This document shows positions 913 to 37,427 of a stretch of 38,728 nucleotides of DNA, piece after piece. Under the pieces are notes generated by a model that saw only the letters and a program-made list of their open reading frames with translations, was not told where the DNA came from and did no database searches. The DNA comes from a virus. Lineage: Duplodnaviria > Heunggongvirae > Uroviricota > Caudoviricetes. Where the stretch lies: IMG/VR virus record IMGVR_UViG_648231705_000004; one strand, written 5' to 3'. A program made the translations under genes and the position numbers. The stretch's first letter is position 1. Every line of letters starts with the position of its first letter.

Positions 913-1311
913 TTATCTGGATTTGTTAACGTCTTTCGTCTCCTCTGGCAGATCTTCATCAAACAACCTGCCCTGCATCCGATCCAGTTCTTCTTTTCTG
1001 ACCCGCTTAACCACGCTGTAGACCCACTGAAGCGAAACACCAAACTTGCGGGCCAGTTCGTGGTGGTTGCGTCCGTTAAACTCCCTGAAGATTTCCCGGT
1101 CGCGCTGACTGACCTTCCATACCATGCCCATCGGGAAATAAACATTTTGCCCGCCCCAGACCTGCATCATTCGGTTCGCGACGGCCTGACCAATCTGGTC
1201 GGCAATTGCGGGCTCAATATCAATAATCTCGCGAACGGTCTCAGAGGTATGCTGTGCCAGCTCCACCAGGAGTTCCGGCCCTTTACTTCGAAACTGATTC
1301 AGGTCGCTCAT
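913..1311 (-). CDS. mor: Mor/C-family transcriptional activator (middle/late gene activator)
   Basis: 132-aa ORF; C-terminal HTH region ...NGRNHHELARKFGVSLQWVYSVVKR typical of Mor family; GGGAG RBS 6 nt upstream; last gene of the early operon. Confidence 0.8.
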   Translation of the reverse strand: MSDLNQFRSKGPELLVELAQHTSETVREIIDIEPAIADQIGQAVANRMMQVWGGQNVYFPMGMVWKVSQRDREIFREFNGRNHHELARKFGVSLQWVYSVVKRVRKEELDRMQGRLFDEDLPEETKDVNKSR

Positions 1312-9487: not shown

Positions 9488-9519
9488 ACCGGAAAGCATT
9501 GTGCTTTCCGGTTTTGTTT
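9488..9519 (+). terminator. Rho-independent terminator downstream of repressor gene
   Basis: Stem ACCGGAAAGC / GCTTTCCGGT, loop ATTGT, followed by TTTTGTTT. Confidence 0.55.
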
Positions 9520-10283
9520 CAGAAGTTGCAGATTACCAGTTCACGGCGCGGCGTGGATTTCCCCGCCAGACTGTAGTTGATGTTCACTGTCTGTATGTTC
9601 AGTCCAGTGAACACCTCGCGCATCTGTGGGATATCGTTCACCGAAATTATCATTTTTCCTCTGATGCACCGGGCCAGCTCTGCCAGCCGCGAGTAGTTCC
9701 CTTCAGGAAAATCCACACCATAGCCTTCCGTACCCAGGTACGGTGGGTCGCAGTAGAACAGTGTGTGCGGACGATCATAACGCTCAATGCACTGTTGCCA
9801 GTCCATGTGTTCTATGACTGTTCTGGAAAGCCGCAGGTGTGCTGTTGACAGTTCTTCTTCAATACGCAGCAGGTTGAAGCGTGGCGGGGATGTGGTGGAG
9901 GTACCGAAGCTGTGCTCTGCCACCTTGCCGCCAAACGCCTGCTTCTGAAGGTAGTAGAACCGTGCCGCACGCTGGATATCCGTCAGTGTTTCTTCCGGGG
10001 TGATCTGCAGCCATTTGTAGATCTGACGGCTGACCAGCGCCCATTTGAACTGGCGGACAAATTCTTCCAGGTGATGCTTTACCACCCGGTACAGATTCAC
10101 CAGTTCACCGTTGATATCATTAATGACTTCGATCTTGCCGGGTGTCTTAAGAAAATAGAGCGCTGCTGCCCCACAAAACGGCTCCACATAACATTCATGC
10201 GCCGGAAACAGCGGCAGAATGTGTTTTGCAAGGCGGCGTTTGCCACCAATCCATGGAACGATGGGTAATGTCTGCATTTTCAT
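9519..10283 (-). CDS. DNA adenine methyltransferase (Dam-type N6-adenine MTase)
   Basis: 254 aa; AdoMet-binding motif EPFCGAAALYF and catalytic DPPY motif (FYCDPPYLG). Confidence 0.9.
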   Translation of the reverse strand: MKMQTLPIVPWIGGKRRLAKHILPLFPAHECYVEPFCGAAALYFLKTPGKIEVINDINGELVNLYRVVKHHLEEFVRQFKWALVSRQIYKWLQITPEETLTDIQRAARFYYLQKQAFGGKVAEHSFGTSTTSPPRFNLLRIEEELSTAHLRLSRTVIEHMDWQQCIERYDRPHTLFYCDPPYLGTEGYGVDFPEGNYSRLAELARCIRGKMIISVNDIPQMREVFTGLNIQTVNINYSLAGKSTPRRELVICNF

Positions 10284-10426: not shown

Positions 10427-10472
10427 ATGATGCGGCAGGGATAGTGGGATTTCTGTTAATGTGGTTTAGGGA

Positions 10473-11810: not shown

Positions 11811-11940
11811 ATCGTATTCTCCTCTGTGAATAATTCATCGTTTATCCTGCACATCCCGTATCCCCGGCTCTCTTAACGCGCTTTAAAATCCTTCGCGCCC
11901 TGTATTTGTGATGCTGTCTCCACCAGACAAGGAGACACAC
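11811..11940. promoter_or_regulatory. divergent promoter region (first late promoter and promoter of the P-loop gene)
   Basis: 130-bp spacer between divergently oriented genes at the start of the plus-strand late cluster; no sigma70-like -35 recognised, as expected for Mor/C-activated promoters. Confidence 0.4.
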
Positions 11941-12291
11941 ATGAAAAACCTGAAAAAATTCATTCCCCCTGTTAAAAAACCTCGCCTCAGCGGCTGGCTG
12001 CTGACCTCAGTGCTGTTGCTGGGCACCATCGCTCTGGTCTCGCCACAGCAGTTGCCTGTTGTGATCTACAAGCTGGCACTCATCACGCTGGCAGCAGTGC
12101 TGGGTTACTGGCTTGACCGTTCGCTCTTCCCCAAAGCCCGTCCCGGTCAGTACCTGAAACATGACGACAGGCTGATGGCTGATGGGCGTTTCCCGGTACA
12201 GACCGGCCTTCACCTGGTGTTTTCTGCTGCGTTAATCCGCCGTGCACTGATTGTTGCAGCGGTCTGTCTGGCTGTTGCGATGGGGCTTTAA
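11941..12291 (+). CDS. membrane protein at head of lysis cassette (holin-like, 116 aa)
   Basis: ATG 11941 with AGGAGA RBS (ORF 11908..12291); several hydrophobic helices; immediately upstream of the endolysin. Confidence 0.55.
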   Translation: MKNLKKFIPPVKKPRLSGWLLTSVLLLGTIALVSPQQLPVVIYKLALITLAAVLGYWLDRSLFPKARPGQYLKHDDRLMADGRFPVQTGLHLVFSAALIRRALIVAAVCLAVAMGL

Positions 12292-17866: not shown

Positions 17867-18668
17867 ACTGGCGTACTGCATGACGCTTCCCCCGAAGCGG
17901 GCAGTCAGTTACCTGAAGTCCAAAGGGTATCAGATTACCTGGGACTGGGAAGAAATGTGGCAGGAGGCCCATGCCCGCGCCTTTACCGTTGCTAAAGTGA
18001 CCCGCCTGGATATCCTGGAAGATATTCGCGGGGCACTGCAGCAGGCTGTCGATGAAGGAAAAACCGATCGCTGGTTCCGGCAGGAGCTGGAGCCGGTGCT
18101 GAAGCGTAAGGGATGGTGGGGACCACGTGACACGACTGACCCGGTAACGGGTAAGCCGGTCACCATTCAGCAGGGCAGTCCGTGGCGGCTCGATACCATC
18201 TTTCGCACCAATATGTCCGTACTCTACAGCGCCGGTCGTTGGGCGGAACAGATGGAAAACGTCGACGACAGGCCGTACTGGATGTATACCGGCATCAACG
18301 ACAGCCATACCCGCAGGAGCCATCTGGCGCTGCATGGTCTGGTGCTGCGCTGGGATGACCCGTTCTGGCAGGCATTTTACCCGCCGAACGGCTGGCGCTG
18401 CCGCTGTAGTGTGATTGCCCTGAGTGCGGCGGATGTACGTGCCCGTGGCCTGAAGGTTATCAGCTCCGGCTCTGCCATGGGCCAGGAACTGAAACTGGTC
18501 TCAGAGAAAACCGGCGAAATGCGGAACGTGGCCACCTTTAATACCGGCACCACGAAGGTGACCACCGACGTCGGCTGGTCTTATGCACCGGGGGCAGCAT
18601 ACCGTCCCGACCTGGCCCGCTATCAGGGTACGCTTCAGCCACTGGCACAACAGGAACTGAGAGGATAA
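17847..18668 (+). CDS. head morphogenesis protein (Mu F-like)
   Basis: ORF 17820..18668 with ATG 17847; follows portal as in Mu. Confidence 0.8.
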   Translation: MSVTTAELAYCMTLPPKRAVSYLKSKGYQITWDWEEMWQEAHARAFTVAKVTRLDILEDIRGALQQAVDEGKTDRWFRQELEPVLKRKGWWGPRDTTDPVTGKPVTIQQGSPWRLDTIFRTNMSVLYSAGRWAEQMENVDDRPYWMYTGINDSHTRRSHLALHGLVLRWDDPFWQAFYPPNGWRCRCSVIALSAADVRARGLKVISSGSAMGQELKLVSEKTGEMRNVATFNTGTTKVTTDVGWSYAPGAAYRPDLARYQGTLQPLAQQELRG

Positions 18669-18670
18669 CA

Positions 18671-19129
18671 ATGGCTTCCGATAACCTGGTCAGTATCACC
18701 ATTAACGATAAATCCCTGCGCCGGAGCCTCCGTGCGCTGGATCTTGCTGCCACAGACCTGGAGCCCGCGATGCGCAAAATCGCCGGAACCCTGCTGGCGG
18801 AAACACAGTTTAACTTTCTTGATGAGGGGCGTCCGGGGTGGATCCCCTCGCTGGCAGCGGAAGAACGTGACGGGCAGACACTGCAGGATACCGGGCGTCT
18901 GATGGGGTCAGTATCAACCGACCATGACGACCGGCAGGCTGTTGTGGGGACCAACGTTGTTTACGGTGCCATTCACCAGTTCGGGGGTAAAACGGGGCGT
19001 AATGAGTCTGTTGAACTTCCGGCCCGCCCGTTCCTGCCGGTGACGGGGGATGGAGAACTACAGCCTGAAGTGGTAATCCCCATCCTCGATACCATTGTCC
19101 GCCATCTTGAATCAGCGGCCCGTCGCTGA
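18671..19129 (+). CDS. virion morphogenesis protein (Mu G-like)
   Basis: 152 aa; GAGAGGA RBS; Mu gene order F-G-I. Confidence 0.7.
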   Translation: MASDNLVSITINDKSLRRSLRALDLAATDLEPAMRKIAGTLLAETQFNFLDEGRPGWIPSLAAEERDGQTLQDTGRLMGSVSTDHDDRQAVVGTNVVYGAIHQFGGKTGRNESVELPARPFLPVTGDGELQPEVVIPILDTIVRHLESAARR

Positions 19130-19172
19130 GTTTTCTCTCTTCAGGCGGGTGATTTATCATTGCCAGCGAATG

Positions 19173-19217
19173 AGGGGCTGTATTACCTTTATAAAGGCTT
19201 TACAGCCTCTGTTTTAT
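19173..19217 (+). terminator. Rho-independent terminator-like hairpin in central intergenic region
   Basis: Stem GGCTGTA / TACAGCC enclosing the perfect palindrome CCTTTATAAAGG, followed by TCTGTTTTAT. Confidence 0.5.
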
Positions 19218-19343
19218 AACCGCCTCCGGTTCACCGCATTGCTTTCCCTGTCCTTCTCCCCTGATGTTTTCTAAAGCAGATTAAAATCGCCGGGCCTGCA
19301 TTTCTCACAAACTGTCTCCGACAACATAACGCGGGACAGCAAA

Positions 19344-20459
19344 ATGTCAGCCATTCACATTTTTAAAGCCGGTACTCATACCGATATGCACGGCAAAAAA
19401 CTGCCGTTCACGCCAGACGATCTTGCCGCCTGCGTGAAAGCCTATGACCCGTCCGTCCATGAAGCACCACTCGTGATTGGTCATCCCAGAACGGAAGACC
19501 CGGCGTGGGGCTGGGTGAAAGCCCTGTCGCTCAGCGGCGTCGATCTGATGGCAGAGCCTGCCCAGCTGGACCCGCAGTTTGCTGAGATGGTCACCGACGG
19601 ACGATTCAAAAAAGTGTCCGCCTCTTTCTACCTCCCGGATTCACCGTCCAATCCGAAGCCCGGCGTGCTCTACCTTCGCCATGTGGGCTTTCTCGGGGCA
19701 CAGCCACCTTCCGTCAAGGGGCTGAAACAGGTGTCCTTCAGTGAGCAGGAAGAAGGTGTGGTGGAGTTCGCCGACTGGCAGGCCATCACGAATGCCTCCC
19801 TGTGGGGAAAGCTGCGCGATTTTCTGATCGCCCGCTTCAGTCTGGACGAGGCAGAAAAAGTCCTGCCGGAATGGCAGCTCAACAGTCTGCGCGAAGAGGC
19901 GTACCGCGACACACTGTCGCAGGATGCAGCAGGTGCACAATTCAGTGAGACAGGCCCGGGGCCGTCTTCCGCAAGTAACGAGGAATCATCGATGACAAAA
20001 GAAGAGATTGAAGCCCTTCAGGAGGAGAACCGCCGCCTGAAGCAGCAGGCTGCTGATCGCGATGCGCGTGATGCACAGGTCAGACAGGAGCAACTGCATA
20101 AGGACAATGTGGCCTTTGCAGAAAAACTGGTCGCAGAGGGCCGTCTGGCTCCCCGCGCCTCCTCCGTGGTGGTTGCCCTGCTGGATGCCGTCGCCGGTGG
20201 CGACAAGCCGGTGGAGTTTGCTGAGGGGGAAAGCCGCACACCGCTGGCCACCGCCTTTCGTTCATTGCTCTCCGACGGGGAGCCGGTGATGAATTTCGCC
20301 GAACAGGCCACAAAAGAGCGTGTCGGCGACACGGTGAAGGTGGATGTGGCAGAGTTTGCGGAAGCCGATCCTGAGCGTCTGGCCCTGCATCAGAAAGCAG
20401 TGGCCCTGTCCAAAAAAGAAGGCATCAGCTATGAGGCTGCTGTCGCACGCTGCCTGTAA
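19344..20459 (+). CDS. head maturation protease / scaffold (Mu I-like)
   Basis: 371 aa; precedes major capsid gene; C-terminal half is charged coiled coil (scaffold-like). Confidence 0.85.
   Translation: MSAIHIFKAGTHTDMHGKKLPFTPDDLAACVKAYDPSVHEAPLVIGHPRTEDPAWGWVKALSLSGVDLMAEPAQLDPQFAEMVTDGRFKKVSASFYLPDSPSNPKPGVLYLRHVGFLGAQPPSVKGLKQVSFSEQEEGVVEFADWQAITNASLWGKLRDFLIARFSLDEAEKVLPEWQLNSLREEAYRDTLSQDAAGAQFSETGPGPSSASNEESSMTKEEIEALQEENRRLKQQAADRDARDAQVRQEQLHKDNVAFAEKLVAEGRLAPRASSVVVALLDAVAGGDKPVEFAEGESRTPLATAFRSLLSDGEPVMNFAEQATKERVGDTVKVDVAEFAEADPERLALHQKAVALSKKEGISYEAAVARCL
19992..20459 (+). CDS. nested in-frame scaffold protein (Mu Z-like), internal start within I-like gene
   Basis: In-frame ATG 19992 preceded by GAGGA (aacGAGGAatcatcgATG); downstream sequence is coiled-coil rich (EEIEALQEENRRLKQQAADRDARD...). 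Confidence 0.4.
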   Translation: MTKEEIEALQEENRRLKQQAADRDARDAQVRQEQLHKDNVAFAEKLVAEGRLAPRASSVVVALLDAVAGGDKPVEFAEGESRTPLATAFRSLLSDGEPVMNFAEQATKERVGDTVKVDVAEFAEADPERLALHQKAVALSKKEGISYEAAVARCL

Positions 20460-25167: not shown

Positions 25168-25190
25168 GGGGCTCCGGCCCCTTCTTCTTA
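25168..25190 (+). terminator. short GC hairpin + T-rich tract (weak terminator) preceding a probable internal late promoter
   Basis: GGGGC tccg GCCCC followed by TTCTTCTT; next gene starts at 25258 with its own RBS. Confidence 0.35.
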
Positions 25191-25257
25191 ATCTCCTTTA
25201 ATATCCGTCACGCGCTTCTCCCGACATACTGCCCTGAACTTACACAGGAGCACAATC

Positions 25258-25593
25258 ATGTCACAGACCCCATCCGATACTTTTAAATTGTCTTATCCCT
25301 TCACCACTGCTGCAGGCACCAGAATTGAGCTGGTTGAACTGAAACGCCTGACGGTAAAAGACCTGAAGCAGGTGCGCAAAATCAGCAAAAACCCGGCAGA
25401 CTGGGACGAACCGCTGATTGCCCGCAGTACTGGTCTTCTCCCGGAAGATCTCGACAATATGGATCTGGCTGATTACCTGCAGTTACAGAAACGATTTCAG
25501 CTCATCACGGGGATGGGTGAGAGCAACCAGGGCGCTGACGCAGGCGCAGGGGCTGCTGGCGAGATGGTTCCGGTTTCAGCCGGGGGAGATTGA
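25258..25593 (+). CDS. tail assembly chaperone (upstream frame of a probable frameshifted pair)
   Basis: 111 aa; AGGAG RBS; sits between tube and tape-measure genes; Gly/Ala-rich C-terminus ending in a G5 run before the stop. Confidence 0.65.
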   Translation: MSQTPSDTFKLSYPFTTAAGTRIELVELKRLTVKDLKQVRKISKNPADWDEPLIARSTGLLPEDLDNMDLADYLQLQKRFQLITGMGESNQGADAGAGAAGEMVPVSAGGD

Positions 25594-26158: not shown

Positions 26159-28965
26159 TTGATATGTCGATCACCGCAAAATATGACAATAAAACGCGGG
26201 ATGCACTTGCCGGACAGATAAAAGGCTGGGCGCTTAAATACAATCAGTATCAGGATGAGCTGCAGGAGGCGGTGGGTTCACTCATCAGCGACAATATTGA
26301 TAATGTGTCAGATATCGGTTTTCTGATGCCGGATATTGCCCGCGCGGCAACGGCAACACGCACGTCTGCTCAGGACTGGGCAAAAGTGGCCGCAGTCTGG
26401 CAAAACTCCCTGAAAGGTGCGGCCAGAGATTTTGGTGCCGTTCAGAATATTATGGCTTATGCCGGTGACCAGGGGTCATTTGAAATCCCGGATCAGGTCA
26501 AGTGGATGCAGTCCCTGGCCCCAATGATGGCGGGTCTTGCCAGTGGAAAAGAGGCTGTTGCTGAAATCGGGGCCAGTCTCCAGATAGCAAAAATCGGTGC
26601 AGGTTCCACCGACGAAGCAGCCAATAATTTTAAAAACTTTCTTACCAAAATTTTTGCCCGCGATACTCAGAAACAGTTTGCTGATCTGGGTATTGATTTG
26701 CAGGGATCTATTGCGAGTTATAAAGCTGCGGGGATCTCTCCGATTGAAGGGATGTTGAGTGTTATAGAACGTTACCTCAATGCCAAAAGCCCCGAAGCGC
26801 TGGCCGGCTTCAAATCAGCCATGAAAATAAAGAATGATACGGCAAGAGATGAGGCACTTCAGGCTCTGGCGAAAAACTTTGGTCTGGGCGATATGTTCGC
26901 GGATATGCAGGTCATGGCATTTATCCGCCCGATGCTGGCCAACATGGACAGATATCGAGAGATCCGTGCCGGTGCTCTCAGGGCTGCGGATAACGATTTG
27001 CTTGCCAGTGCTTATGATCAGCGGCTGAAATCTCCCCTTGAAGCCACTAAAACACTTATGGTCAGCAGTCGCGATCTGGCAATTACGCTGGGCGATCAAT
27101 TAGCTCCATCTTTTATTTCTCTGACTCAGGAACTGCTCCCACTCATTCAGGGGACAAAACACTGGGTAGCGACTCACCCGCAATTTGTCAGTGGGGCTTT
27201 TAAGCTCATCAGTGCGCTCCTTGCGATTAAGATAGCGACTATTGGTCTCAAACTGGGGCTGAATCTCCTTATTTCCCCCTTTGTGAACGTCTGGAAAACT
27301 ACTGTTTTACTCCGGACCAACTGGCATCGACTGACTACCGCACTCGGAGAAGGTGGCAAATTACGCTGGCTTGTCACTGGATTCAGCCGACTGACCAGCG
27401 GAGGACTGAAACTCAGCAAAGTTCTGGCGGGCAGCCTCGTTCGCGGTTTTATGAGCGCTGCACGTGCCGTTCTCTGGATTGGGCGAGCGCTGATGATGAA
27501 TCCCATCGGTCTCGTTATCACCGCTGTCGCGACAGCAGCTTACCTTATCTACCGCAACTGGGGGGCTGTCAGTGGTTGGTTTAAACAGCGCTGGGCTGAC
27601 ATTCAGGAAGCCTTTAACGGCGGCATTGTGGGAATTGGTAAGTTGCTGATTAACTGGTCGCCGGCAGGCCTGCTCTATAAAGCCTTTGCGGCTGCGCTGA
27701 AATATTTCGGCGTTGCTCTGCCGGCAAAGTTCACCGACTTCGGTGGCCATCTTATCGACGGTCTGATTAACGGTATCAAAAGCAAATGGGGGTCGCTCAA
27801 ATCCAGTGTAACCGGAATGGGTGACAGCATCAGTAGCTGGTTTAAACAGCGCTGGGCTGACATTCAGGAAGCCTTTAACGGCGGCATTGTGGGAATTGGT
27901 AAGTTGCTGATTAACTGGTCGCCGGCAGGCCTGCTCTATAAAGCCTTTGCGGCTGCGCTGAAATATTTCGGCGTTGCTCTGCCGGCAAAGTTCACCGACT
28001 TCGGTGGCCATCTTATCGACGGTCTGATTAACGGTATCAAAAACAAATGGGGGTCGCTCAAATCCAGTGTAACCGGAATGGGTGACAGCATCAGTAGCTG
28101 GTTTAAACAGTGCTGGGCTGACATTCAGGAAGCCTTTAACGGCGGTATCGCGGGAACTGGTAAGCTGCTGATTAACTGGTCGCCGGCAGGTCTGCTCTAT
28201 AAAGCCTTTGCAGCTGCGCTGAAATATCTTGGTGTTGATCTGCCGGCAAAGTTCACCGACTTCGGTGGCCATCTTGTCGACGGTCTGATTAACGGTATCA
28301 AAAACAAATGGGAGTCGCTCAAATCCAGTGTAACCGGAATGGGCGACAGCATCAGTGGCTGGTTCAGCGAAAAGCTGGGCATTCATTCGCCGAGCCGCGT
28401 GTTTATGGGCTTTGGTGACAATATCGCGCAGGGGGCCGCCATTGGCCTGCAGCGGACCACTCCGCTTGCAGCTCTGGCCGGGCAGCGAATGGCCAGTGAA
28501 CTGCTCCCCAGAATGCCCGTGAGCATTCAGGGGCCAGAAATACGGGATAACACTTCAGGTGTTCGCTTCAGTATGCCGTTGCCCGATATCAATGGGTTTA
28601 TGTCGTCTGCTAAAAATGCGATCGGAGCCGTAATCAATAGTTTGTCTTCCATGCCCGCTATCCCGCTCTCCACCCGGGCATCGATTTTACCAGGGCAACG
28701 TCTGGCAAATGAGATGACACCGGATGTTCCCCGTATCCCCTCGCCTGAAATCATGGCTGCCGGATATTCAGGCCGTGGTGCAGCTGCAACCGGCGGTGGA
28801 ACGTCTGGTGGTATCCAGGTCAGCTTTAATCCTCAGTTTTTCCTCAATGGCAGGGAAACCACAGCGCCTGCAGGACTGACTGGTGCCCTGAATATGAGTC
28901 TGCATGAGCTGGAAAAAATGCTGGAGCGTCTGCTGGCTCAGAAACAACGTAAGGAGTACCGCTGA
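26053..28965 (+). CDS. tail tape measure protein (main body, 970 aa)
   Basis: Long helix-rich ORF between chaperone and baseplate genes; contains three tandem 87-aa repeats. Confidence 0.85.
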   Translation: MALYGQGIEAYGMAQTVYHTVSPAVQQSMSFQDKMIDMSITAKYDNKTRDALAGQIKGWALKYNQYQDELQEAVGSLISDNIDNVSDIGFLMPDIARAATATRTSAQDWAKVAAVWQNSLKGAARDFGAVQNIMAYAGDQGSFEIPDQVKWMQSLAPMMAGLASGKEAVAEIGASLQIAKIGAGSTDEAANNFKNFLTKIFARDTQKQFADLGIDLQGSIASYKAAGISPIEGMLSVIERYLNAKSPEALAGFKSAMKIKNDTARDEALQALAKNFGLGDMFADMQVMAFIRPMLANMDRYREIRAGALRAADNDLLASAYDQRLKSPLEATKTLMVSSRDLAITLGDQLAPSFISLTQELLPLIQGTKHWVATHPQFVSGAFKLISALLAIKIATIGLKLGLNLLISPFVNVWKTTVLLRTNWHRLTTALGEGGKLRWLVTGFSRLTSGGLKLSKVLAGSLVRGFMSAARAVLWIGRALMMNPIGLVITAVATAAYLIYRNWGAVSGWFKQRWADIQEAFNGGIVGIGKLLINWSPAGLLYKAFAAALKYFGVALPAKFTDFGGHLIDGLINGIKSKWGSLKSSVTGMGDSISSWFKQRWADIQEAFNGGIVGIGKLLINWSPAGLLYKAFAAALKYFGVALPAKFTDFGGHLIDGLINGIKNKWGSLKSSVTGMGDSISSWFKQCWADIQEAFNGGIAGTGKLLINWSPAGLLYKAFAAALKYLGVDLPAKFTDFGGHLVDGLINGIKNKWESLKSSVTGMGDSISGWFSEKLGIHSPSRVFMGFGDNIAQGAAIGLQRTTPLAALAGQRMASELLPRMPVSIQGPEIRDNTSGVRFSMPLPDINGFMSSAKNAIGAVINSLSSMPAIPLSTRASILPGQRLANEMTPDVPRIPSPEIMAAGYSGRGAAATGGGTSGGIQVSFNPQFFLNGRETTAPAGLTGALNMSLHELEKMLERLLAQKQRKEYR
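27577..28359. repeat. 3 x 261-bp near-identical in-frame tandem repeats inside tape measure gene
   Basis: Unit begins TGGTTTAAACAGCGCTGGGCTGACATTCAGGAAGCC at 27577, 27838 and 28099; encodes SWFKQRWADIQEAFNGGIVGIGKLLINWSPAGLLYKAFAAALKYFGVALPAKFTDFGGHLIDGLINGIK... Confidence 0.9.
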
Positions 28966-31796: not shown

Positions 31797-31850
31797 GCTT
31801 TTTAAACGCCTTTAATATCAGCGTTCCCGCACGGGGGCAATACTGCCCCC

Positions 31851-32198
31851 ATGAAAACAACCTCAGTATTCTGGCAACCAGCCCTGCAGGCTCCCGGCGA
31901 AATTGTCCGGGGGCTGGATGATATCCGGCAGGCGATTCAAATTATCCTGCGGACTCCCCGCGGCAGCGACCCGCATCGCCCGGAGTTCGGCAGCAATCTG
32001 CATCTTTATATCGACTGGCCTGTAGACCGGGCCATTCCGCATGTGGTGCGCGAATCCGTCGATGCCATCCGGCGCTGGGAGCCCCGCTGCCAGCTTATGT
32101 CAGTTAAACCCGCCGTCGACGGCGAACATCTTACGCTCCGGGTGAGCTGGAAAGGCTCAGACGGACAGACCCGGACTCAGGAGCTGCTATGGCGCTGA
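31851..32198 (+). CDS. baseplate wedge protein (gpW/gp25-like)
   Basis: 115 aa; segment IRQAIQIILRTPRGSDPHRPEFGSNL typical of GPW/gp25 family. Confidence 0.8.
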   Translation: MKTTSVFWQPALQAPGEIVRGLDDIRQAIQIILRTPRGSDPHRPEFGSNLHLYIDWPVDRAIPHVVRESVDAIRRWEPRCQLMSVKPAVDGEHLTLRVSWKGSDGQTRTQELLWR

Positions 32199-36854: not shown

Positions 36855-37427
36855 ATGCTGATTGGCTACATACGTGTGTCAACAAATGACCAAAACACAG
36901 ATTTGCAACGCAATGCATTAATGTGCGCAGGATGTGAACAGATTTTTGAGGACAAAATGAGCGGAACCAAGTCGGAACGACCAGGCCTGAAACGCGCTTT
37001 AAAGTGCCTTAAAAGAGGGGATACATTGGTGGTCTGGAAGCTGGATCGGTTGGGTAGAAGAATGAAACACCTCATTGCTCTCACAGAAGAGCTACGCGCA
37101 AAAGGTGTCAATTTTCGCAGTCTGACGGATTCAATCGATACCAGCACTCCGATGGGAAGGTTCTTTTTTCATATGATGGGTGCACTGGCAGAAATGGAGC
37201 GTGAACTGATAGTTGAGCGCACGCTGGCAGGACTGGCTGCTGCGCGAGCACAAGGGAGAGTTGGAGGACGTCGCCCGAAACTGACGAAGGAGCAGCATGA
37301 GCAGATCGCAAGATTGCTCCAGAAAGGGTATGACAGAAAGCGGCTGGCAATTATCTATGATATTGGACTGTCAACGATCTACCGCTACCACCCTGTTGGG
37401 ACTGTCATAACGCAACCTGAAATGTAA
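36855..37427 (+). CDS. serine-recombinase DNA invertase (Gin/Pin/Hin/Cin family)
   Basis: N-terminus MLIGYIRVSTNDQNTDLQRNAL with catalytic Ser; C-terminal HTH; ATG is codon 44 of ORF 36726..37427. Confidence 0.9.
   Translation: MLIGYIRVSTNDQNTDLQRNALMCAGCEQIFEDKMSGTKSERPGLKRALKCLKRGDTLVVWKLDRLGRRMKHLIALTEELRAKGVNFRSLTDSIDTSTPMGRFFFHMMGALAEMERELIVERTLAGLAAARAQGRVGGRRPKLTKEQHEQIARLLQKGYDRKRLAIIYDIGLSTIYRYHPVGTVITQPEM

Follow-up and report, generated by a model that had tools for sequence, protein, structure and literature searches.

The intergenic region and its genetic context

The stretch of DNA considered here, 38,728 bp long and hereafter referred to as the window, is a BcepMu-type transposable prophage of Escherichia coli, matched by Escherichia phage PhiKM with 99.9% identity over the query. 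The prophage has been found in 637 of 5,426 complete E. coli genomes (~12%), with ST131 and the therapeutic strain 83972 among its hosts. In strain 83972 it interrupts rstB, and a 7-bp target duplication, ACAAATT, marks the ends of an element of 37,700 bp running from -194 to 37505 in window coordinates. These ends start with TGAT and carry paired repeats of the form G(A/C)GATAAAT(G/A), to which the BcepMu end repeat, GCGATATTTC, is related. Two more GATAAAT copies (18707 and 19152), in opposite orientations, flank the G gene together with the intergenic region described below. A meaning of these two copies as transposase end repeats was considered and set aside, given that seven occurrences against ~4.6 expected amount to chance, that the similarity does not extend beyond the motif and that BcepMu has no convincing counterpart.

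From a genetic perspective, the minus strand carries the early genes, which code for an rve-type transposase, an AAA ATPase, Gam, GemA and, at the end of the leftward early operon, a Mor-family transcription activator. The late genes occupy the plus strand from ~11.9 kb onwards. Unlike in Mu, the early operon runs against the direction of the late genes. Within the tape-measure gene, three identical copies of TCTATAAAGCCTTTGC spaced 261 bp apart (27673-28211) indicate a tandem repeat of 261 bp (87 codons). A further relative may be represented by NZ_CP132021.1, deposited as an E. coli plasmid of 40,540 bp, which has a 79%-identical copy of the intergenic region (19283-19496) near its middle and could be the genome of a related Mu-like phage that was assembled as a replicon of its own.

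The G-like ORF ends at 19129 and the I-like ORF begins at 19344, leaving a gap of 214 bp (Table 1). The first-pass annotation had pointed to this gap as unusually long among tightly packed late genes and as lying at the centre of the genome, and the RefSeq annotation of the same prophage bears this out: most late genes abut or overlap, and the gap is the longest of the late region, the others measuring 130, 28, 97, 157 and 54 bp. Its distance to the left end is 19.3-19.5 kb and to the right end 18.2-18.4 kb, a fraction of 0.513-0.518 of the element, which is the central G-I location expected of a strong gyrase site (SGS) of the Mu type. The other elements described there are likewise present, namely the nested palindrome, a T-run, which is short, and an AT-rich stretch ahead of the I-like gene (19266-19287). 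The parallel drawn with Mu also agrees with the Mu record, in which the G-I interval (196 bp) holds the gyrase cut site, a predicted terminator and the late promoter PI.

The G+C content is 47% in the gap and 42% in its first 91 bp, against 55% in the window. Across 636 E. coli genomes, the gap carries no annotated feature. Among 80 relatives, taken as one genome per species, a G-I gap of ~190-240 bp is the commonest arrangement; about a quarter have a shorter one, and some of these shorter gaps probably come from spurious upstream ORFs. When aligned with its relatives, the gap resolves into short conserved blocks split by variable sequence. That it encodes a small protein or a small RNA is extremely improbable. 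The record of one relative does annotate a 41-codon ORF in the gap, and that of phiE255 a small ORF on the reverse strand, but an Rfam search of the gap gave no match at E<=1, conservation is limited to the short blocks, single-base indels between close relatives break the reading frame and large indels separate the clades.

Table 1. Features of the G-I gap, its neighbouring genes, the activator gene and the sister late promoters (window coordinates)
Feature	Position	Strand	Description
Mor/C-family transcription activator gene	913-1311	-	Pfam PF08765 Mor, E=1.1e-43
Lysis sister promoter	11872-11915 (pattern 11873-11888)	+	Holin/lysis operon; CTTAA-CGCGCT-TTAAA, -10 GATGCT
G-like virion morphogenesis gene	18671-19129	+	Pfam Phage_tail_S, E=9.7e-23; RefSeq annotation; last gene of the upstream late operon (lysis, terminase, portal, F, G)
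Small hairpin	19112-19139	+	TCAGCGG..TCGCTGA then GTTTTCTCTC; overlaps the G stop codon; pattern scan; terminator-like
Conserved block GCGGGTGATTTATCATTG	19145-19162	+	Single occurrence in the window
Nested palindrome/hairpin	19173-19210	.	Outer arms GGCTGTA (19176-19182) and TACAGCC (19201-19207); CCTTTATAAAGG at 19186-19197
Inner perfect palindrome CTTTATAAAG	19187-19196		Neighbouring arm TTTACAG, 19199-19205
GTTTTATAA tail after the hairpin	19211-19219	+	With the hairpin, an intrinsic-terminator-like signal in the window clade
Variable spacer	19220-19265		Little conservation (alignments)
Mor-type activator element	19270-19285	+	TCTAA-AGCAGA-TTAAA; 5-bp inverted repeats, 6-bp spacer, centre 19277.5
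I-operon pattern match	19271-19286	+	-10 CAAACT
-10 hexamer CAAACT	19308-19313	+	Identical to the Mu PI -10; no -35 hexamer
Inverted repeat CTGTCTCCG ... CGGGACAG	19312-19339 (arms 19312-19320, 19332-19339)	+	Stretches from the -10 almost to the start codon
Mu I-like protease/scaffold gene	19344-20459	+	Homology to BcepMu gp32 and relatives' 'head maturation protease' genes; first gene of the next late operon
Tail sister promoter	25187-25230 (pattern 25188-25203)	+	Tail-chaperone/tape-measure operon; CTTAA-TCTCCT-TTAAT, -10 CATACT; GC hairpin and T-run upstream
Baseplate sister promoter	31801-31844 (pattern 31802-31817)	+	TTTAA-ACGCCT-TTAAT, -10 AATACT

A probable late promoter of the Mor/C type

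According to the literature, Mor binds a pair of 5-bp inverted repeats that flank a 6-bp, G/C-rich spacer; the site is centred at -43.5 and stands in for the -35 element. C binds a 16-bp dyad, likewise at -43.5, in promoters that have a -10 and no -35 hexamer. The gap contains an element of this 16-bp architecture, followed by a -10 hexamer, spaced as in the Mu promoter Pm, recurring in the window and conserved in relatives, so that the earlier proposal of a late promoter at this place is supported. In Pm of Mu the dyad AGTAA-AGCCGG-TTAAT takes the place of the -35, and TATCCT follows 30.5 bp after its centre; this distance is identical in the gap and is shared with the late promoters of Mu in general. 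The -10 of the gap is, moreover, that of Mu PI, and both lie directly ahead of the I gene. The spacer of the gap dyad (AGCAGA) is half G/C, that is, less rich in G/C than the spacer of Mu Pm, which counts against the late-promoter model; the spacers of the sister sites are CGCGCT, TCTCCT and ACGCCT. A sigma-70 scan of the plus strand of the gap returned no -35/-10 pair and, since it lacks a -35 hexamer, the promoter cannot work alone. Two other hexamers within the AT-rich stretch, TAAAAT and TAATAT, were considered as the -10 and rejected: most relatives read TTAAAAG here, so that the critical last base is a G, and when the gap is lined up with the mapped Mu promoters the -10 comes to lie 21 nt downstream.

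The recurrence of the element in the window is far above expectation. The pattern YTAA-N6-TTAAWA gives six matches at five places, against 0.075 expected, all five of them on the plus (late) strand and four of the five directly ahead of late operons. When it is followed by 20-22 nt and nAnnCT, five matches are found in the window and none in 200 shuffles. Four copies made up of the dyad, 21 nt and nAnnCT directly precede the lysis, I, tail and baseplate operons on the late strand; Mu likewise has four late promoters per genome. In 1.6 Mb of genomes of relatives the full pattern is found 168 times on the strand of the late genes and 24 times on the opposite one. The activator element is kept in the G-I gap of ~55 of the 80 relatives. 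Relatives from the Enterobacterales, Pseudomonas and the Burkholderiales retain it together with a -10 hexamer that always has A as its second and T as its sixth base. Matches to the activator motif in reverse orientation within the G-I gap were discarded as an artefact of the near-palindromy of the motif. In Mu-class lineages the promoter-proximal boxes are different (CGGAA-N4-TTCCG-CCTTAAC).

Some further matches deserve mention. The fifth combination of box and -10 (36999-37042; TTAAAGTGCCTTAAAA ... GAAGCT) has a spacing one base longer and lies inside a Gin-like invertase gene (36855-37427), near the right end of the prophage. A strong match to the activator box, intergenic and on the minus strand (10454-10469), scores 20, against 22-27 for the four late promoters, and precedes small ORFs and a D12-class adenine methylase gene (9519-10283, minus strand); here a DNA-modification gene may be driven by an activator-dependent promoter, which would recall Pmom of Mu. 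Directly ahead of the activator box of the tail operon, a GC hairpin, GGGGCTCCGGCCCC, is followed by TTCTTCTT (25169-25187), an order of terminator and then promoter that is the same as in the G-I gap.

As for the protein that would act at these sites, the Mor-family activator is encoded by the same element, as a Mor/C-dependent promoter demands, and its product is presumed to activate the promoter of the gap. It belongs to one protein family with the activators of Mu and is about equally distant from both, with 31% identity to Mor and 35% to C. The half-sites of the window are of the TTAA type, nearer to the site of Mor than to the TTAT/ATAA of C, and the prophage has one activator where Mu has a cascade of Mor followed by C. 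The activator ends in RMQGRLFDEDLPE, and the QGRLF in this tail is similar to a beta-clamp-binding pentapeptide and lines up with QPDLF in Mu C; beta-clamp-binding motifs have been described in members of the Mor/C family in a 2026 report, with which the QGRLF of the window activator fits. The Mor-type elements and the activator gene are both present, and therefore the reading of the gap as the site of a late promoter is well supported at the level of sequence.

Transcription is predicted to start at ~19321, 43.5 bp beyond the centre of the dyad, which would give a leader of 23 nt and would place the dyad at -43.5. A search of the literature found no mapped transcript ends for this phage or for any BcepMu-type phage.

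Inverted repeats between the -10 element and the start codon

The inverted repeat at the end of the gap covers the ribosome-binding region and has a predicted folding energy of -10 kcal/mol (z=-3.6). A hairpin at this place, with differing sequences, is found in 11 other lineages, Mu included (z from -3.1 to -6.1). Because the predicted transcription start lies just after the 5' arm, the hairpin would form only in RNA that reads through from upstream, and therefore it probably blocks the translation of I from read-through transcripts.

The same layout is seen at the other Mor-type late promoters of the window, each of which has a repeat extending from the 'CTG' end of the -10 to the start codon (11905-11946, 25220-25263 and 31826-31856 at the sister promoters; z from -3.2 to -3.8). 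In the baseplate hairpin, the loop contains the -10 and the ATG comes immediately afterwards, an arrangement that points to a leaderless transcript. Judged by eye, Plys and Pm of Mu show the same arrangement of a repeat from the -10 to the start codon.

The palindrome and its conserved core

Upstream of the promoter, the palindrome extends to arms of 19 nt (19173-19191 and 19192-19210) that are 79% complementary. Its RNA fold reaches ~-20 kcal/mol (z=-4.7), and none of 200 shuffles is as stable. In the window it has the features of a terminator, with a 10-bp outer stem of ~-20 kcal/mol followed by GUUUUAUAA, which contains four consecutive U. One explanation is that the palindrome is solely the intrinsic terminator of the upstream late operon and that its conservation reflects termination. 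The stability of the hairpin and the U-run after it favour this explanation, as does the presence, in both Mu and BcepMu, of a hairpin with a U-rich tail at the same place. Mu reportedly makes separate lys and I transcripts, which would point in the same direction.

The comparison of relatives speaks against a function restricted to termination. The T-run is lost in relatives with 80% identity (CCCGCTTTGC), although the hairpin is 100% identical there, and the outer stem is missing in the Photorhabdus clade (z=+0.7) and in the Erwinia clade. In contrast, the core formed by CTTTATAAAG and TTTACAG, which occurs once in the window, is kept in relatives from the Enterobacterales, Pseudomonas and the Burkholderiales; the loop and core are identical base for base across orders, where the arms of the stem differ or are missing. 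A terminator depends on a stem and a U-run and has no need of a fixed loop sequence. The core is thus conserved where stem and T-run are lost, and therefore the palindrome is more than a simple terminator; likewise, given the loss of the U-run at 80% identity and the stemless Photorhabdus clade, termination is not its conserved function. We consequently regard the terminator-only explanation as rather unlikely. In terms of its sequence and conservation, the core appears to be a sequence-specific element, to which a terminator-like hairpin would be added in the window clade.

The homologous gap of BcepMu, between gp31 and gp32 (18648-18849), is of particular help in delimiting this element. It is 202 bp long and lies at 51% of the genome, and it shares with the window the core (TTTATAAAGGCTTTAC) inside a hairpin, the activator dyad (GTAAAGCCGATTAAAAG) and the position of the -10. 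It differs in its flanks, which are GC-rich and unrelated, so that the core stands as an AT-rich island within a GC-rich gap, and in the absence of the GCGGGTGATTTATC block; the spacing from core to dyad is 76 bp in BcepMu and 86 bp in the window. Mu also has a conserved AT-rich element, of a different sequence class, in the form of two TTTAAC units. In G-I gaps of the Mu class, two or three TTTAAC(G) units are found 11-12 bp (and 20-21 bp) apart, and in Mu itself they lie in the right arm of the SGS and in the loop of the predicted terminator hairpin.

The core most likely represents a protein-binding or DNA-bending site that serves the promoter or the genome centre. By eye, no convincing match to the LexA, IHF, Fis or DnaA consensus was seen in 19140-19210. 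A possible partner is the phage activator itself: the core would then be an auxiliary site for the same Mor-family protein, on the same helix face as the dyad, raising the local activator concentration or looping the DNA at the I promoter alone. Read on the other strand, the core with TTTACAG becomes TGTAA-AGCCTT-TATAA, which shares a GTAA(A)G half-site and a G/C-rich spacer with promoter dyads such as GTAAAG-CCGA-TTAAAAG of relatives and AGTAA-AGCCGG-TTAAT of Mu Pm. The centre distances between core and promoter dyad cluster at 66-67, 76-78, 84-88 and 107 bp, approximately whole helical turns apart, with exceptions. Furthermore, the orientation of the core relative to the genes flips between lineages, as expected of a symmetric binding site and not of a promoter, Mor and C have been reported in a preprint to bind their promoters as centrosymmetric tetramers, and Mu-class relatives have another upstream repeat, the two TTTAAC units.

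Several observations nevertheless make an auxiliary activator site unlikely. The second half-site is TATAA in every lineage and never TTAAA, and a matrix of activator boxes, which is partly circular, gives the core a score of -5, against 22-27 for true boxes. Several lineages are off the helical phase (72-74 and 100-101 bp), and the three other late promoters have no such element. Finally, the left half of the dyad varies across lineages and the core is constant, so that the two do not co-vary. The palindrome core may act as an auxiliary protein site, as an architectural element or, in some lineages, as a terminator; a protein-binding or DNA-bending site is the description that we consider most likely for it.

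Comparison with the strong gyrase site of Mu

The first-pass annotation had also proposed that the gap holds a strong gyrase site like that of Mu, and this part of its proposal finds no support in sequence tests, whether by similarity of the core or by a gyrase matrix. In molecular terms, the first half of the gap (~19090-19220) would be cut by gyrase near GGGT^GATT^TATC (19151-19154), with the phased AT-rich palindrome arm wrapped around the enzyme, and processive supercoiling from the centre would pair the prophage ends for replicative transposition. There are several points of resemblance to Mu: the candidate site is in the G-I interval and central (51.3-51.8% of 37.7 kb, as in Mu and BcepMu), phased AT-rich elements lie beside a G-rich core, and there is a hairpin within the arm. 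When inverted, the conserved block GCGGGTGATTTATCATTG looks like the cleavage core of Mu (GCGG[C/G]T^GATT^TT), with a notional 4-bp stagger at 19151-19154, and at 11 of 11 bases GCGGGTGATTT is identical to the core of Mu as it stands in the stronger nuB variant fragment. AT-rich patches at ~+17, +30, +39, +48 and +63 recall the ~10.5-bp phasing of the published consensus, a correlation based on the W/S pattern only gives z=2.8 for the right arm, the equivalent AT-rich elements of Mu lie in its right arm, the essential part, and the element of the window is single-copy and conserved.

The similarity is nonetheless not significant at the level of sequence. Without gaps, the wild-type Mu core is matched at 10 of 11 bases at best, a level reached in 27 of 300 shuffles, and the match is in the opposite orientation. 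The GCGGGTGATTTATCATTG block is kept in the window clade and in Photorhabdus/Xenorhabdus and partly in the Erwinia clade, but a GC hairpin replaces it in Pectobacterium/Brenneria and no counterpart is evident in the Pseudomonas or Burkholderia relatives.

Positions were also scored with an approximate gyrase matrix, derived from 423 published cleavage coordinates with their published scores and from the first 199 kb of W3110, by combining a symmetric regression matrix (cross-validated r=0.84) with a frequency matrix; the regression rebuild is approximate only, with a training error of 0.9 bits, and register shifts on the reverse strand do not account for the misfit. As a partial validation, it places the Mu SGS 5th of 36,588 Mu positions. 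With the published gyrase motif, the sites of Mu, pSC101 and pBR322 are the top scorers in their own replicons. In the window, by the approximate matrix, the look-alike core (19151) scores only moderately and ranks 744th of 38,599 positions, 19093, within the final part of G, is the best nearby position and ranks 98th, and the top sites are elsewhere (12800 and 15438); in the relatives, the best score in the gap is at chance for a window of that size (median fraction 0.006). The gap has, therefore, no outstanding match to the gyrase motif, a result to be taken as a weak negative since the matrix is a reconstruction (r=0.84). The W/S-pattern correlation with the published 133-bp gyrase consensus was set aside as a test, being of weak power (it ranks the Mu SGS 7th-31st); its top score in the window, at 19092, was not confirmed by the better matrices.

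The experimental record of such sites is also unfavourable. A site of a BcepMu-like prophage of Salmonella Typhi was reportedly cleaved by gyrase and brought no replication benefit to Mu. According to a 2023 review, of the sites tested as replacements for the Mu SGS only that of the Sakai prophage, a close relative of Mu, promoted Mu replication. On these grounds, a strong gyrase site in the gap is improbable.

Both the location at the centre and the occurrence of a unique, conserved AT-rich element are real, and in the two measured genomes of this phage family CTTTATAAAG and TTTACAG lie near the midpoint. It is conceivable, but in our view decidedly doubtful, that they form a centre element that loops the prophage and helps its ends to pair; the partner could be gyrase or another DNA-bending protein, for example a tetrameric Mor-family activator, and Mu-class phages would use the two TTTAAC units for the same purpose.

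A probable junction of two late transcription units

We consider it likely that the gap is the junction of two late transcription units, built on the same plan as the G-I interval of Mu. According to this model, transcription of the lysis/head operon would meet the palindromic hairpin and its short U-run, which together resemble a terminator in the window clade. About 60 bp beyond the hairpin lies the promoter proper, in which, by analogy with Mu, a multimer of the Mor-family activator of the phage would bind the dyad at ~-43.5 and recruit sigma-70 RNA polymerase to the CAAACT hexamer, so that transcription of the genes for I (protease/scaffold), capsid and tail would start near 19321. RNA reading through from upstream, and this RNA alone, would fold the repeat between the -10 and the ribosome-binding site and keep I untranslated. 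Upstream of the promoter, CTTTATAAAG and TTTACAG would offer their protein-binding or DNA-bending site to the promoter or to the genome centre.

These findings concern a prophage carried by ~12% of complete E. coli genomes, the late regulation of which was previously undescribed, and they extend the Mor/C activator logic of Mu to the BcepMu family with its inverted early region. With one activator and four or five promoters recognisable by their sequence, both annotation and reporter design become straightforward. Two conserved features have apparently not been discussed before, that is, the upstream element specific to the I promoter and the hairpins that tie the late promoters to the first start codon. 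Furthermore, the segment 19145-19210 is a candidate with which to ask whether a central site is needed beyond Mu and its closest kin.
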